A stretch of DNA of 64,000 bases from sequence record ON528731. One strand, 5' to 3'. The position numbers and the translations under genes are program-made. Positions 222 to 55,989 of this stretch are shown one piece after another. The DNA is from Shigella phage ESh21. Position 1 is the stretch's first letter. Every line of letters starts with the position of its first letter. The notes under the pieces were generated by a model, which was not told where the DNA came from, ran no database searches, and saw nothing but the letters and a program-made list of their open reading frames with translations.

Positions 222-231
222 GGTTAATATA

Positions 232-256
232 GAGGCTCCTTCGGGAGCCTTTTTCA
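232..256 (+). terminator. Rho-independent terminator
   Basis: AGGCTCC-TTCG-GGAGCCT hairpin followed by T-run. Confidence 0.7.
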
Positions 257-273
257 TTTCTAGGAGAAGTTAA

Positions 274-621
274 ATGACATTTAAAGAATTTTGTCAAGCT
301 GCTTTTGTAATCATGTTTCTGTTAGGTGTTGGTGCTTGGGGAGGTTATACTTACAAGACCAGCCAAGTTAACGAGAAAGAGTTGACTAATCAGAGATTGG
401 TTAGTGTTGCTAAGGATGCTTACCAAGAAGGTTTAGCAAACCTTAGCGCTAATTACAAAAACGATTTGAAAGATGTGCTTGCTAAAAACAAACACACAAA
501 AGAGGTATTAACTTATGAAAAAACTAAGACAGAGTTTCTTAATATTTGTGCTACTGAGTCTTATGTCAGGGTGTTCAATGAACAAGGTGAACAGTACCTT
601 CAAAAACTCCCAAGTAAGTGA
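274..621 (+). CDS. Membrane protein, i-spanin-like (N-terminal TM helix, charged periplasmic region)
   Basis: AGGAG Shine-Dalgarno 8 nt upstream; N-terminal hydrophobic segment FVIMFLLGVGAWGG. Confidence 0.5.
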   Translation: MTFKEFCQAAFVIMFLLGVGAWGGYTYKTSQVNEKELTNQRLVSVAKDAYQEGLANLSANYKNDLKDVLAKNKHTKEVLTYEKTKTEFLNICATESYVRVFNEQGEQYLQKLPSK

Positions 622-784
622 GAGTGACAAGTACACTCAGGAAGAAACTAGGTACACTGTCAAAGGTACTAAGGGTGAAGACCTTGCTAGTGCTATGGAG
701 TTTTATCGTGATGGATTCTATGAATGTGCTATCAAGGCAAACAATTTGATTGATATGATTTTGTTAGGGAATAAGCAGCAATGA
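515..784 (+). CDS. Lipoprotein, o-spanin-like, overlapping 274..621 in another frame
   Basis: Signal peptide with lipobox LMSGC; AGAGG SD; starts inside upstream gene and extends past its stop. Confidence 0.45.
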   Translation: MKKLRQSFLIFVLLSLMSGCSMNKVNSTFKNSQVSESDKYTQEETRYTVKGTKGEDLASAMEFYRDGFYECAIKANNLIDMILLGNKQQ

Positions 785-1956: not shown

Positions 1957-2751
1957 ATGGGCATTGTAAAAATCATTAAAGGTGATATCTTTGAAGCCTT
2001 TGATAACCAGAAGTTTGATATCATTGGTCACGGATGCAACTGCATGAACTTGATGGGTGCAGGTATTGCAGCAACAATCTCAAAACGCTACCCAAAAGCT
2101 TATGAGACTGACGCTGAAGTTTATGAGACAGTTGGTGGTGAGAACCATAAACCTGTACATCTTATGCTTGGCAATATCTCTGTAGCACGTTTCAAGCAGG
2201 GTCGAATTGCTAACCTATACACTCAGGTTATCACTGGTAAAGATGCACGTTACAATGCCTTAGAAGCAGCTTTGCAGCGTCTTAACAACTACTGCAAAGT
2301 AAACCAGCTTAAGAAGGTTGGTCTTCCAATGATTTGTGCAGGGATTGGTGGTCTGGATATCTTTGCAGTTACTTCAATCATTAACCAGACAATGAAAGAT
2401 GTAGACGTTTACCTTTATGTCTATGAAGAAACAATGCACAGACGACTAACCAATAACATAGTTGGTTGGAACAACTACAGTGAACCTCAACACTTTGATG
2501 GTGTCGCAGTTGTGAAGGATAATCAAGTTACACTACGGGTAAAACGGAAGGGTAAGGTGCATAAAAGTAACCCTCCGGTTGAGAAGTACTCTCTGAGTAA
2601 CGCTCAAGTTACCCACCCGTTACATGACCACTGTTTGAGAGCAGTAACATTTGGTGACAATGCAAGTGTTTACCTTCTTGCACAAGACCATGAAGAAGCT
2701 GATAAGATTATCTCTGATAAACGTTTTAGCTTTGTTGAAGCACGTAACTAA
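1957..2751 (+). CDS. Macro domain protein (ADP-ribose binding / ADP-ribosyl hydrolase-like) with C-terminal extension
   Basis: GDIF...FDIIGHGCNCMNLMGAGIAATI and KVGLPMICAGIGGLD resemble macro-domain motifs (GDIT, VNAAN..GGGV..AI, PxIxTGxxGxP). Confidence 0.65.
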   Translation: MGIVKIIKGDIFEAFDNQKFDIIGHGCNCMNLMGAGIAATISKRYPKAYETDAEVYETVGGENHKPVHLMLGNISVARFKQGRIANLYTQVITGKDARYNALEAALQRLNNYCKVNQLKKVGLPMICAGIGGLDIFAVTSIINQTMKDVDVYLYVYEETMHRRLTNNIVGWNNYSEPQHFDGVAVVKDNQVTLRVKRKGKVHKSNPPVEKYSLSNAQVTHPLHDHCLRAVTFGDNASVYLLAQDHEEADKIISDKRFSFVEARN

Positions 2752-7997: not shown

Positions 7998-8525
7998 ATG
8001 AATAAGTTCACAGCAATCAATACTATCCGCTCAAAAGATGTAATGAAAAAACCTGTAAAAGACACTTTCGAATTTACTCTTAAAGATAAGTTGTTTGCAG
8101 TTATCACGAAAGGGGAAGATAAAAAATATTACATTCATCGCCCAAATCAGCAAATGCTAACCACTAACAACTTTATGAAGGCTGTGGCAATGATTCTGCC
8201 TGATTTTATGGCTATCGTTGCAGAGATTCACGAAATGGCTATAAAAGCCACTAAAAACGAGCTAAACCGCTATAAAATGGCTTATGAGCGTTCTATCAAG
8301 TCTCATAATCTTTTTATTGCAATCCACCATACGGGGATGTATGCTATGGGGACGGGTAACCAACAATACCCGCTCTATGATGTAGAAAATATCTATACAG
8401 GTGATTATCCAACAACTAAATTTAAGATTACGCTGGGGGAGGCATTAACTAGGGGGATTCGACTTTACGAACAATCTCTAAAAAACTTAGAAAATTCACT
8501 TGACGAAACGTTAGCGAATCTTTAA
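7998..8525 (+). CDS. Hypothetical early protein
   Basis: Conserved leader upstream. Confidence 0.55.
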   Translation: MNKFTAINTIRSKDVMKKPVKDTFEFTLKDKLFAVITKGEDKKYYIHRPNQQMLTTNNFMKAVAMILPDFMAIVAEIHEMAIKATKNELNRYKMAYERSIKSHNLFIAIHHTGMYAMGTGNQQYPLYDVENIYTGDYPTTKFKITLGEALTRGIRLYEQSLKNLENSLDETLANL

Positions 8526-16461: not shown

Positions 16462-16926
16462 TTACTTTGGATATACCGCGTCAAGATAAATCTTCGCTTC
16501 CATTCTACGTCTGTTTGTCAGACCTTTAGAAGCAACTTTCTTACCGTTGATGGTTACCTTATTCCACCACTGCATAGCTTCTGCACAGCCAACTTTGTTA
16601 CCAGCATTGTGACGCCTCATGAAGGTTGATTCCTTCATAGCCCCAATACCGATGTTGTAGGTTTCAATAACCAGTGCGTCAAATTCATTCTGGGTAGTTG
16701 GAGCACTGATAGCTTTGTTCACAGCTACTACAAACTTCTCAACATCAGCAAGTAGATAACTGTTAGCTTGGGCTTCATTGATTTTCATACCCATCTTGAC
16801 AGGTTGACCATTGATACGGATTGTACCATAACCAATTGTAGGAATACCAGCAGAGTCTTTGTAGGCTTCTAAACGAAGCCCCTCAAAGAACTTGATAGCT
16901 TCCAATCCTTGAGGGGATAATTGCAT
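16462..16926 (-). CDS. Endolysin, T4 lysozyme-like (glycoside hydrolase family 24)
   Basis: FEGLRLEAYKDSAGIPTIGYGT matches the T4 lysozyme catalytic motif [21 protein letters not shown]. Confidence 0.9.
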   Translation of the reverse strand: MQLSPQGLEAIKFFEGLRLEAYKDSAGIPTIGYGTIRINGQPVKMGMKINEAQANSYLLADVEKFVVAVNKAISAPTTQNEFDALVIETYNIGIGAMKESTFMRRHNAGNKVGCAEAMQWWNKVTINGKKVASKGLTNRRRMEAKIYLDAVYPK

Positions 16927-49623: not shown

Positions 49624-49818
49624 ATGCCAACCATTCTAGCAATCCTCTTGAAAAATCTTGGGGCATTCTTCTGGAAGCTTCTACTTTCTCTTCTTAGCGA
49701 ATACATGATTGAAAAAGTGTTCTTCAAGCTTGCAAGATACCTTGCGAGTAAAACAGACACACCTATTGATGATGAATTTGTAGATACCTTGGAAAAGGCT
49801 TTTAAGGGTGAAAAATAA
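49624..49818 (+). CDS. Small membrane protein (holin-like candidate)
   Basis: 64 aa with N-terminal hydrophobic/amphipathic segment. Confidence 0.35.
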   Translation: MPTILAILLKNLGAFFWKLLLSLLSEYMIEKVFFKLARYLASKTDTPIDDEFVDTLEKAFKGEK

Positions 49819-50192
49819 TGAAGTGGATTGAAGAGGCTTTTAAGAACAACATTGGCGCAATTGTTGTAGGTATTTTCAGTGTAATTGGTATGTACACTAC
49901 GATGCAGGTCTCTGATGGAAAGCAAGAAGTTTCTATCAACACAAAGTTACAACAGTTGGATGGTTACTCAAAAGGTAACTATTCAGCTATTCGTGATTTA
50001 CAGTCTGATATGAAACTCCTTCAGTTAGGGATGGAAAACCAGAAAGTGCAGTTAGAGAACGTTAAAGGGGAAAACGCTAAGTTGACCAAAACCCTTGATA
50101 AATTCTCAGATAGTGTGAACAACTTAGCACAGTCTGTATCAGCTTTACAAGCAATTACCGAACAAAATACACAGAATGTTAAAAAGAAATAA
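49818..50192 (+). CDS. Membrane-anchored coiled-coil protein
   Basis: N-terminal TM segment IGAIVVGIFSVIGMY then coiled-coil-like region. Confidence 0.4.
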   Translation: MKWIEEAFKNNIGAIVVGIFSVIGMYTTMQVSDGKQEVSINTKLQQLDGYSKGNYSAIRDLQSDMKLLQLGMENQKVQLENVKGENAKLTKTLDKFSDSVNNLAQSVSALQAITEQNTQNVKKK

Positions 50193-53613: not shown

Positions 53614-53809
53614 CCTTCTTCCTCCGTTTACGCGAAGTGTCTATTAAGGAATCTATACTGGTTGCTCTTACATTCTCACGAGTCCCGTTGACGAAGTGGT
53701 CTAGAGCCTCTACAACTGTATTAAAATCCTTAGCCCAAACTCTGTAAATAACTACTCCATCGTCGTCAACAACTTCACCATAGTCGATTCTACAGATGTT
53801 CTTTTTCAT
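53606..53809 (-). CDS. Hypothetical protein
   Basis: ORF in track. Confidence 0.4.
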   Translation of the reverse strand: MKKNICRIDYGEVVDDDGVVIYRVWAKDFNTVVEALDHFVNGTRENVRATSIDSLIDTSRKRRKKDE

Positions 53810-54186
53810 TGTGGCAGACCCATGCAGTGACGGTTAATGATAAAGTACTCAAACCCATCTAAAACAGACTGTGTAACACGTTCTTCTACAGCTTTAGTTT
53901 CAGAAATCTGTTCAGAACTTAGCACATCAATATTCTCAGAAACCATCATATCAGCCACATCGTTGTAGTAACCACCCATAGTGTGGTAGATGAGGTCAGT
54001 TGTACGGTCTGTCATTTCCTGAAAAGTTTCTTGAGTGATTGGTTTAGTTAACTCTCCAGACTTAGAAACAATCTTTTGAGAAAGCTCACAAGACTCCAGT
54101 TTAACTTTACCGTAGTCCATATTTGGCATAACCGCATAAGCATTGAAGCTTAGTACTGCAAAGAGACATAGTGCAAGCTTTTTCAT
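53806..54186 (-). CDS. Secreted protein with signal peptide
   Basis: Start set to MKKLALCLFAVLSFNAYA with GGAGG SD. Confidence 0.45.
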   Translation of the reverse strand: MKKLALCLFAVLSFNAYAVMPNMDYGKVKLESCELSQKIVSKSGELTKPITQETFQEMTDRTTDLIYHTMGGYYNDVADMMVSENIDVLSSEQISETKAVEERVTQSVLDGFEYFIINRHCMGLPQ

Positions 54187-55535: not shown

Positions 55536-55793
55536 TCATTGCCACTTACCTTCTAAATACACATTTACAACTTGGTGGTCATAATCATCTTTAAGTTTAT
55601 GCTTGACCTCTGCAACTCTGTGGTTCCAATCATTAATCTCAACAGTCTCCCCTTCTCGTGGGATAACTGGATTGCGTTGACCTTCAGTCATAGTGCTGAA
55701 GATGTTTTCATACTTATAGATAAAGTTTACCAGAACCTGCATATCAATATCCTCCATCAAAAACTGTGGTGTGTGACTGACTATTCTTTCCAT
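55536..55793 (-). CDS. Hypothetical protein
   Basis: ORF in track. Confidence 0.45.
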   Translation of the reverse strand: MERIVSHTPQFLMEDIDMQVLVNFIYKYENIFSTMTEGQRNPVIPREGETVEINDWNHRVAEVKHKLKDDYDHQVVNVYLEGKWQ

Positions 55794-55989
55794 ACTTGTA
55801 AGAAGTTGTAGTCTGAGAATTTGGGCAGCGAACTACAATAACATCCCTGCTAATGGCATCACCATTAAGTTTATAAATCTTGCAGTCTTGCATTTCTGGA
55901 GGAAGTCTGTAAGAAGCATCCTTATTCTCATAAGAAGGGTTACATCCAACCAGTAGGACTACTAAAGCTGGTATCAATAATTTTAACAT
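55744..55989 (-). CDS. Small lipoprotein
   Basis: Signal peptide with lipobox LLVGC. Confidence 0.45.
   Translation of the reverse strand: MLKLLIPALVVLLVGCNPSYENKDASYRLPPEMQDCKIYKLNGDAISRDVIVVRCPNSQTTTSYKYGKNSQSHTTVFDGGY

Follow-up and report, generated by a model that had tools for sequence, protein, structure and literature searches.

Gene layout and expression signals

The window, the whole 64,000-nucleotide stretch of Shigella phage ESh21 DNA analyzed here (record ON528731), carries close to its beginning two overlapping open reading frames on the plus strand. The first, ORF A (274..621), starts with ATG and encodes a 115-aa protein that we assign as the probable i-spanin. The second, ORF B (515..784), also starts with ATG and encodes the probable o-spanin, an 89-aa precursor with a predicted mature form of 70 aa. 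ORF B lies in the +1 frame relative to ORF A, starts inside it and extends 163 nt beyond its stop codon, so that 107 nt on the plus strand (515..621) are dual-coding, specifying residues 81-115 of the i-spanin and residues 1-36 of the o-spanin. The initial annotation had described an overlapped membrane-protein and lipoprotein gene pair here, with lipobox LMSGC, and this description stands, with ORFs at 274..621 and 515..784 in the +1 arrangement and the lipobox in place.

Both genes are preceded by a Shine-Dalgarno sequence on the plus strand. For the i-spanin gene this is AGGAG (262..266), 7 nt before the ATG at 274, and for the o-spanin gene it is AGAGG (501..505), 9 nt before the ATG at 515 and within the i-spanin coding sequence. 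Ribosome-binding sites are annotated at the equivalent positions of both in the record of Citrobacter phage Mijalis. The upstream gene ends in a plus-strand hairpin followed by a T-run that resembles an intrinsic terminator (231..252; 9-bp stem, 5 GC pairs), only ~20 nt upstream of the i-spanin start, and a terminator is annotated at this same site in Mijalis and in wV8. No convincing sigma-70 promoter for the pair was found near position 274, and there is no space for one between the terminator at 231-252 and the ATG. In the window, the genes around the pair are small and form a block that follows rIIA/rIIB and a polynucleotide kinase gene.

Coding in both frames

An ORF that starts inside another gene could be a chance open frame that is never translated, leaving the membrane protein as the only real product, and existing sequence records could be read in this way. 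In the nearest GenBank record, that of Shigella phage ESh22, the full ORF B is unannotated and only a 30-aa fragment is called, and in many other records ORF B is either a "hypothetical protein" or is started at internal codons. Such missed and truncated o-spanin genes are attributable to the dislike of gene callers for an overlapped start. We scanned the ORFs in all six frames of the window for a lipoprotein signal and found the pattern at three loci in the 64 kb, against 0.13 expected by chance per shuffled window. In addition, 70 of 70 loci retained the open frame of ORF B with its start, its ribosome-binding site and its lipobox. These loci represent six phage lineages, namely Felixounavirus/Mooglevirus, Hafnia and Erwinia Ounavirinae, phiEco32-like phages, Proteus Gorganvirus and P2/HP1-like prophages.

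Selection was analyzed in a set of 32 related sequences from Felixounavirus and Mooglevirus, of which 27 are distinct. Both ORFs were intact, of identical length and free of indels in all 27 distinct sequences. In the region covered by ORF A only, diversity in frame A was concentrated at the wobble position (0.233, versus 0.083 and 0.058 at codon positions 1 and 2) and pN/pS was 0.15. In the region covered by ORF B only, the same pattern was found in frame B (0.332 at the wobble position, versus 0.086 and 0.055 at positions 1 and 2), with a pN/pS of 0.11, whereas the other two frames of this region, used as controls, gave values of 2.1-2.4 (0.9-2.4 for control frames overall). Within the overlap, diversity was 0.046-0.064 at all three codon positions in either frame and pN/pS was 0.54 in frame A and 0.82 in frame B. 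Uniformly low diversity is the expected pattern here, since no site is silent in both frames. These patterns indicate that ORF A and ORF B are both translated, with purifying selection acting on both frames. The pN/pS of frame B downstream of ORF A refutes the notion of an untranslated chance frame, to which we assign next to no probability.

Predicted features of the i-spanin and the o-spanin

The ORF A product has a single transmembrane segment at residues 6-24 (289..345, plus strand; FCQAAFVIMFLLGVGAWGG), with a Kyte-Doolittle value of 1.72. It is the sole 19-residue window of the protein above the threshold of 1.6 used for this call. The remaining ~89 aa are charged and mostly helical and contain a single cysteine, C92. 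An orientation with the N-terminus inside and the C-terminus outside is inferred, the charges flanking the transmembrane segment being ambiguous in this sequence. Near the C-terminus lies a conserved motif (517..579, plus strand) made up of the invariant alignment columns E82...N90-x-C92...Y97...F101-N102, with the consensus EKTKxxFxNxCxxxxYVRxFNE, which holds the single periplasmic cysteine. Across lineages the family alignments retain G24, E82, N90, C92, Y97, F101 and N102. By analogy with lambda Rz/Rz1 and T4 PseT.3/PseT.2, the motif at 517..579 may be the region of o-spanin contact and disulfide formation. An AlphaFold2 model built from the family alignment has helices at residues 3-71 and 73-80 and, after a break, at 95-111, with low confidence (pLDDT 57).

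The ORF B product begins with MKKLRQSFLIFVLLSLMSG followed directly by CS, in which a basic n-region and an h-region lead into the lipobox L-M-S-G-C (560..574, plus strand), with Ser at position +2. Cys20 (572-574) is predicted to be lipidated, and Ser21 at +2 predicts sorting of the protein to the outer membrane. Both residues are invariant across lineages in the o-spanin alignment, and G54, C71, N76 and L78 are also retained. The mature protein contains no proline in its 70 aa, in line with the lack of proline richness stated in the initial annotation, and has one further cysteine, C71, which is invariant or nearly invariant, compared with the invariant C92 of the i-spanin. Modeled with AlphaFold2 from the family alignment (pLDDT 66), the protein has a signal helix, a disordered linker at residues 18-35 and helices at 36-43, 54-75 and 78-87, the last two forming a predicted C-terminal helical hairpin (residues 54-87; 674..775, plus strand) with a local pLDDT of 68-90. 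This hairpin, which contains G54, C71, N76 and L78, is by analogy with other spanins a candidate contact domain for the i-spanin. The predicted secondary structures of the two proteins fit the helix-linker-helix i-spanins and the o-spanins with a linker and a C-terminal helix of other families.

The two products have the features of their respective spanin classes. ORF A encodes a small protein with one N-terminal transmembrane segment and a remainder predicted to be predominantly helical, and ORF B encodes a small protein with a signal of the signal peptidase II type, a lipobox cysteine and a compatible +2 residue. The gene order is likewise that of a two-component spanin (overlapped by 107 nt, in the +1 frame, on the same strand), and each partner has a periplasmic cysteine, C92 in the i-spanin and C71 in the o-spanin.

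Relationship to catalogued spanins of Felix O1-like phages

The window belongs to Mooglevirus (Ounavirinae). Over its first 3 kb it shares 99.9% identity with Shigella phage ESh22, of that genus, and ~90% with Citrobacter phages Moogle and Mijalis. Both the Moogle and the Mijalis records label the pair i-spanin and o-spanin, at the same coordinates relative to the neighboring genes. The ORF A product is 93% identical to the Moogle i-spanin and the ORF B product 97% identical to the NCBI entry "o-spanin [Citrobacter phage Moogle]", while identity to the wV8 proteins is 77% for the i-spanin and 80% for the o-spanin. The pairs of Moogle, Mijalis, Felix O1, wV8 and Mushroom share with that of the window their protein lengths (115 and 89 aa) and the 107-nt overlap in the +1 frame, as well as their surroundings, with polynucleotide kinase and one small gene upstream and a macro-domain "phosphatase" gene downstream. 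Compared with these pairs, the pair in the window differs in nothing of substance.

The original survey of Rz/Rz1 equivalents is reportedly that of Summer and colleagues from 2007, which is said to define, with the later Kongari survey, the two-component spanin class. In the survey of Kongari et al. (2018, PMC6139136), Moogle, Felix01, WV8, Mushroom and others are members of two families with overlapped genes, the "JH2" i-spanins and the "JH2" o-spanins. By its sequence, the pair in the window is a member of these JH2/Felix O1 spanin families, and is in that sense already known, as a bioinformatic assignment. Within the searchable literature we found no lysis experiment on a family of the JH2/Felix O1 type.

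The assignment was examined further by profile and structure searches. A spanin-specific profile search had been proposed as a check on the pair, and in a PHROG profile search ORF A matched phrog_1152, "Rz-like spanin", with an E-value of 4.8e-36. ORF B matched phrog_4180 (3.7e-48) and phrog_2425 (1.7e-8), both labeled "unknown function" in PHROGs v4, and annotation pipelines built on that version will go on labeling the o-spanin gene as hypothetical. Searches of Pfam (E <= 1) and NCBIfam with both proteins gave no meaningful match. When the family profiles were searched against PDB sequences, only signal-peptide and coiled-coil noise came back (BamE and FtsB, E 0.05-0.3), and Foldseek searches of BFVD with the low-confidence models retrieved, for the o-spanin, only members of its own family and, for the i-spanin, no match. 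For phage-therapy candidates of the Felix O1-like group, correct annotation of the spanins belongs to the description of a complete lysis system.

Homologous pairs in lysis cassettes

More distant homologues of the pair were found beside lysis genes. In the P2-like Salmonella phage SW3, the gene order is a holin (Phage_holin_3_2, 9e-21), an endolysin (Peptidase_M15_4, 5e-10) and then the pair, which consists of a 127-aa type II membrane protein and a 98-aa lipoprotein overlapping its end. The same pair is present in 32 related P2/HP1-like viral contigs of ~30 kb, and the order is repeated in a P2/HP1-like prophage of Yersinia enterocolitica, as judged from precomputed Pfam labels. In Proteus phage RS10pmA, a Phage_holin_8 gene and a phrog_465 endolysin gene precede the pair. 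Thus, the SW3-like, Yersinia and RS10pmA pairs lie directly after holin and endolysin genes, phiEco32 being an exception, while the pair in the window is unlinked to its lysis genes.

These distant proteins are only 20-30% identical to those of the window. Between the Felix/Moogle and the P2-like groups, profile-profile comparison of the periplasmic parts only gave a probability of 98% (P = 1.5e-13) for the i-spanins and of 90.7% (P = 1.3e-6) for the o-spanins, whereas control comparisons of i-spanins versus o-spanins gave P = 0.15-0.39. All i-spanins fall in phrog_1152 and all o-spanins in phrog_2425 and phrog_4180. At the level of sequence profiles, the homology of both partners to the lysis-cassette pairs is statistically sound. 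Together with the annotation of close relatives and the phrog_1152 match, these homologues in lysis cassettes bear out the spanin-like reading with which the locus was first described.

That first description had also raised another function for the pair, superinfection exclusion. Some known exclusion proteins are small phage lipoproteins. A lipoprotein similar to T5 Llp or phi80 Cor, made early together with its partner, would block incoming phage DNA or mask receptors, and the setting of the pair, amid early-type small genes near rII and polynucleotide kinase and far from the endolysin gene, would suit such a role. However, the spanins of phage T4 are likewise found in an early-gene region, beside pseT. 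We searched for exclusion or defense profiles (Llp, Cor, Imm/Sp and similar) through PADLOC and PHROG family labels and found none: PADLOC matched neither protein, and among PHROG matches up to E = 1 there was no exclusion-labeled family, the only labeled ones being "Rz-like spanin". Furthermore, the homologous pairs occupy the slot expected of spanins: in the late operons of P2/HP1-like phages they are flanked by the endolysin gene and the tail genes, and in the Proteus phage they follow the holin and endolysin genes. Obligatory pairing with a type II membrane protein and a fixed overlap with its gene, as found in six lineages, are typical of spanins, whereas Llp and Cor are encoded by single genes. 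We thus regard an exclusion or receptor-masking function as highly improbable.

Lysis genes elsewhere in the genome and the T4 precedent

The remaining lysis genes of the phage are found far from the pair. A soluble GH24 endolysin is encoded on the minus strand at 16462..16926 (Pfam Phage_lysozyme, 5e-39; phrog_7 endolysin, 2e-55), unlinked to the spanin pair and 15.7 kb from it, in agreement with the distance of about 16 kb given initially. A putative holin gene, also unlinked to the pair, lies on the plus strand at 49818..50192 and encodes 124 aa with one N-terminal transmembrane segment. Its label comes from annotation only, that of the ortholog CPT_Mijalis055 as "putative holin", its PHROG match being without function. 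With the spanins at 0.3 kb, the endolysin at 16.5 kb and the putative holin at 49.8 kb, the pair would complete the lysis set of this phage. The lysis genes are again scattered, as in T4, in a phage of the Felix O1-like group, for which scattering of lysis genes around the genome has been described (Moogle genome paper, PMC4319497).

The distance from the endolysin gene and the poverty in proline of the lipoprotein had been held as reservations against a spanin. Both are precedented in T4. The T4 pair PseT.3/PseT.2 is unlinked to the holin and endolysin genes, as is the pair in the window (T4 map; PMC6139136), and in the T4 o-spanin family, where a C-terminal helix is predicted, no region is rich in proline (Kongari et al. 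2018, PMC6139136). Given these precedents and the scattered lysis genes of Felix O1-like phages, the two reservations fall away. There are further similarities: pseT.3 and pseT.2 adjoin the polynucleotide kinase gene pseT in an early-gene region, and the pair in the window is also near a polynucleotide kinase gene; the T4 spanins, translated from RefSeq, have 117 and 99 aa, similar to the 115 and 89 aa found here. The two systems differ in that the T4 pair lies upstream of pseT and that of the window downstream of polynucleotide kinase, and in that the T4 pair is classed as "separated" (Kongari et al. 2018, PMC6139136), with only a 4-nt stop/start junction (8429-8432 of the T4 map section), compared with the long overlap of the window pair. 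We also considered homology to PseT.3 and PseT.2 and rejected it, as hhalign aligned the transmembrane segment and the lipobox only, with probabilities of 0.9% and 18.6%.

Comparison with the spanins of lambda and P2

As predicted from their sequences, the two proteins resemble lambda Rz/Rz1 in combining a type II inner-membrane protein that has a helical periplasmic domain with a small lipoprotein of the outer membrane whose gene lies in the +1 frame. The likeness would extend to periplasmic cysteines for homotypic disulfides and to presumed membrane fusion after degradation of the wall. There are also clear differences. Rz1 is fully embedded in Rz, whereas the o-spanin gene of the window is overlapped; Rz1 has a mutationally sensitive penta-proline stretch, whereas the o-spanin of the window lacks proline and is predicted to have a helical C-terminal domain; and the lambda spanin genes lie within the lysis cassette, the window pair outside one. 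No homology to Rz/Rz1 was detected at the level of Pfam, where there was no match at E <= 1 and therefore none to models based on Rz or Rz1.

P2 LysB/LysC form an overlapped pair located after holin and endolysin, and LysC resembles the o-spanin family in its lipobox, a Pro-containing linker and a "TxGD...L......CA" pattern. The Pfam LysC family (PF23793) weakly matched 8 of 42 o-spanin family members (best E 4.2e-5), the protein of the window remaining unmatched, and hhalign of the o-spanin family against LysC gave a probability of 18% (P = 1.3e-3). A distant kinship between the o-spanin and P2 LysC, unproven, is possible. Homology of the i-spanin to P2 LysB was rejected, with an hhalign probability of 1.2%.

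The P2 genes also bring up the possibility that the pair has some other periplasmic role or only modulates the timing of lysis, as lysB and lysC were first described to do, and does not itself disrupt the outer membrane. The P2 record notes that these genes are "nonessential; affects timing of lysis", and the weak LysC matches among the 42 family members could be counted towards such a function. Moreover, an over-expressed lysis cassette of Yersinia entomophaga lysed cells without its spanins, of whatever family these are (PMC10101115). We followed a possible link to such toxin-associated Yersinia cassettes, and the Yersinia homologue that we located lies in an ordinary P2/HP1-like prophage. 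Ordinary laboratory culture with shaking masks spanin defects, and spanin mutants first came to notice through "timing" phenotypes (Kongari et al. 2018, PMC6139136). Masked defects of this kind looked like timing shifts before the Mg2+ phenotype was understood and hardly amount to a distinct mechanism, and P2 LysB and LysC are themselves now classed as spanins. A purely modulatory or other periplasmic role thus seems very improbable to us.

Proposed mechanism

Our combined findings on architecture, homology and gene neighborhood make it very probable that ORF A and ORF B encode a two-component spanin. Following established lipoprotein biology, the ORF B product would be lipidated at Cys20 and delivered by Lol sorting to the outer membrane, into its inner leaflet, and the ORF A product would be held in the inner membrane by its anchor and expose its C-terminal domain to the periplasm. 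By analogy with lambda and T4, the conserved C-terminal motif of the i-spanin may bind the C-terminal helical hairpin of the o-spanin, and C92 of the i-spanin and C71 of the o-spanin may each form homotypic intermolecular disulfides. The resulting complex would span the periplasm, threaded through the peptidoglycan and inactive as long as the wall is intact. For lysis, the putative holin (49818..50192) would release the soluble endolysin (16462..16926), leading to degradation of the wall. No longer held by the wall, the complexes could then bring about fusion of the inner with the outer membrane, which would clear the final obstacle to release of the phage. Given this restraint by the wall, spanin genes need not adjoin the holin and endolysin genes or be expressed at the same time as them.

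Overlap register and linker prolines

The overlap of the two genes contains the heptamer TGTTCAA (572..578, plus strand). Read in the o-spanin frame it specifies Cys-Ser, and in the i-spanin frame, together with one further base, Phe-Asn. The heptamer was found in the same register in 70 of 70 loci from the six lineages. The P2/HP1-like, Yersinia, RS10pmA and phiEco32-like pairs share this +1 register with the window pair, along with the conserved motifs and a cysteine in each partner. They differ from it in the length of the overlap (116-191 nt versus 107 nt) and in having 1-9 prolines in the o-spanin linker versus none in the window. The proline count of the mature o-spanin thus ranges from 0 in Felix/Moogle phages to 9 in some P2-like members, so that absence of proline characterizes one branch and not the family as a whole.

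A speculative reading of these observations, to which we would give perhaps some credence although we think it on balance unlikely, is that TGTTCAA locks the register of the whole superfamily and that the Felix/Moogle branch has lost all the prolines of its o-spanin linker; both the constraint and its novelty are conjecture. If true, i-spanin and o-spanin genes could move and evolve only as a unit, and spanins could function without proline-rich segments even among members of a single homologous family.

Overlap register and annotation of the spanin genes

The window's o-spanin gene (515..784, +) begins within the i-spanin gene (274..621, +), in the +1 frame, and the register of this overlap can be read from a single short sequence. 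The heptamer TGTTCAA (572..578 in the window, with its counterparts in the related loci L001-L070) provides the Cys-Ser codons of the o-spanin lipobox and, together with the next base, encodes Phe-Asn, an invariant motif of the i-spanin. The register is identical in 70/70 loci from six phage lineages; the overlap is therefore older than the divergence of these lineages.

Database records often truncate the o-spanin gene. In the GenBank record nearest to the window, that of Shigella phage ESh22, it is annotated only as a 30-aa fragment (L002 20695-20784, equivalent to window 695..784), while in many other records, and in protein clusters of 68-73 aa, the start is placed at internal codons. Both o-spanin families, phrog_4180 and phrog_2425, are listed as “unknown function” in PHROGs v4, and through these fragments, internal starts and labels the name “hypothetical protein” has been propagated. 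A Felix O1-type spanin pair (77-81% identity) is also found at 125695-126202 of GU169904.1, a 147 kb record named “Staphylococcus phage SA1”, which probably includes Felix O1-like sequence foreign to a Staphylococcus phage.

Genes neighboring the spanin pair

In Ounavirinae, a polynucleotide kinase gene is followed by one or two small genes and then, downstream, by the spanin pair, as in Citrobacter phage Mijalis (L001 1828-2523), wV8 (L008 1066-1731) and the divergent member Hafnia phage Zyzzx (L006 471-1154). In T4 (L072 7003-8782), the kinase gene is pseT, and the spanin genes pseT.3/pseT.2, which are unrelated to those of Ounavirinae, are found one gene upstream of it. The proximity of kinase and spanins in both may be coincidence or may reflect a common early-gene module.

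On the other side of the window's pair, ~1.2 kb downstream, lies a macro-domain gene annotated “phosphatase” (1957..2751, +; Pfam Macro, 5e-7). The homologous spanin pair of phiEco32 has phi32_37 immediately after it (L003 4261-4701; Macro, 8e-11), a gene whose annotation reads “Appr-1-p processing enzyme family”. Spanins and macro-domain gene may form a module common to myoviruses and podoviruses.

Candidate lysis and exclusion genes

Zyzzx has, ~1.8 kb upstream of its spanin pair, a gene with the annotation “putative lysin”, for which the visible part of the gene (L006 1-383) gave no Pfam support. In the window, two neighboring genes directly follow the tail fiber gene, encoding a 64-aa small membrane protein (49624..49818, +; phrog_402; “putative cytoplasmic membrane protein” in Mijalis) and a 124-aa type II membrane protein (49818..50192, +; phrog_4038; “putative holin” in Mijalis). 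On topology alone the latter is a putative holin, an identity for which no profile support was found.

The initial annotation had raised superinfection exclusion as an alternative role for the spanin pair. Two other window genes encode predicted exported products: a protein of 126 aa whose N-terminus, MKKLALCLFAVLSFNAYA..., resembles a signal peptide (53809..54186, -; phrog_4332, “unknown function”), and a second predicted lipoprotein, stand-alone and 81 aa long, MLKLLIPALVVLLVG followed by CNPS... (55744..55989, -; phrog_902, “unknown function”). Relatives of the lipoprotein, every one labeled hypothetical, occur in 569 phage records (tblastn) from widely differing groups, including Vibrio, Acinetobacter, Aeromonas, Klebsiella and jumbo phages. 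If any window gene encodes a lipoprotein for receptor masking or exclusion, the spanin pair is a weaker candidate for it than this predicted lipoprotein.
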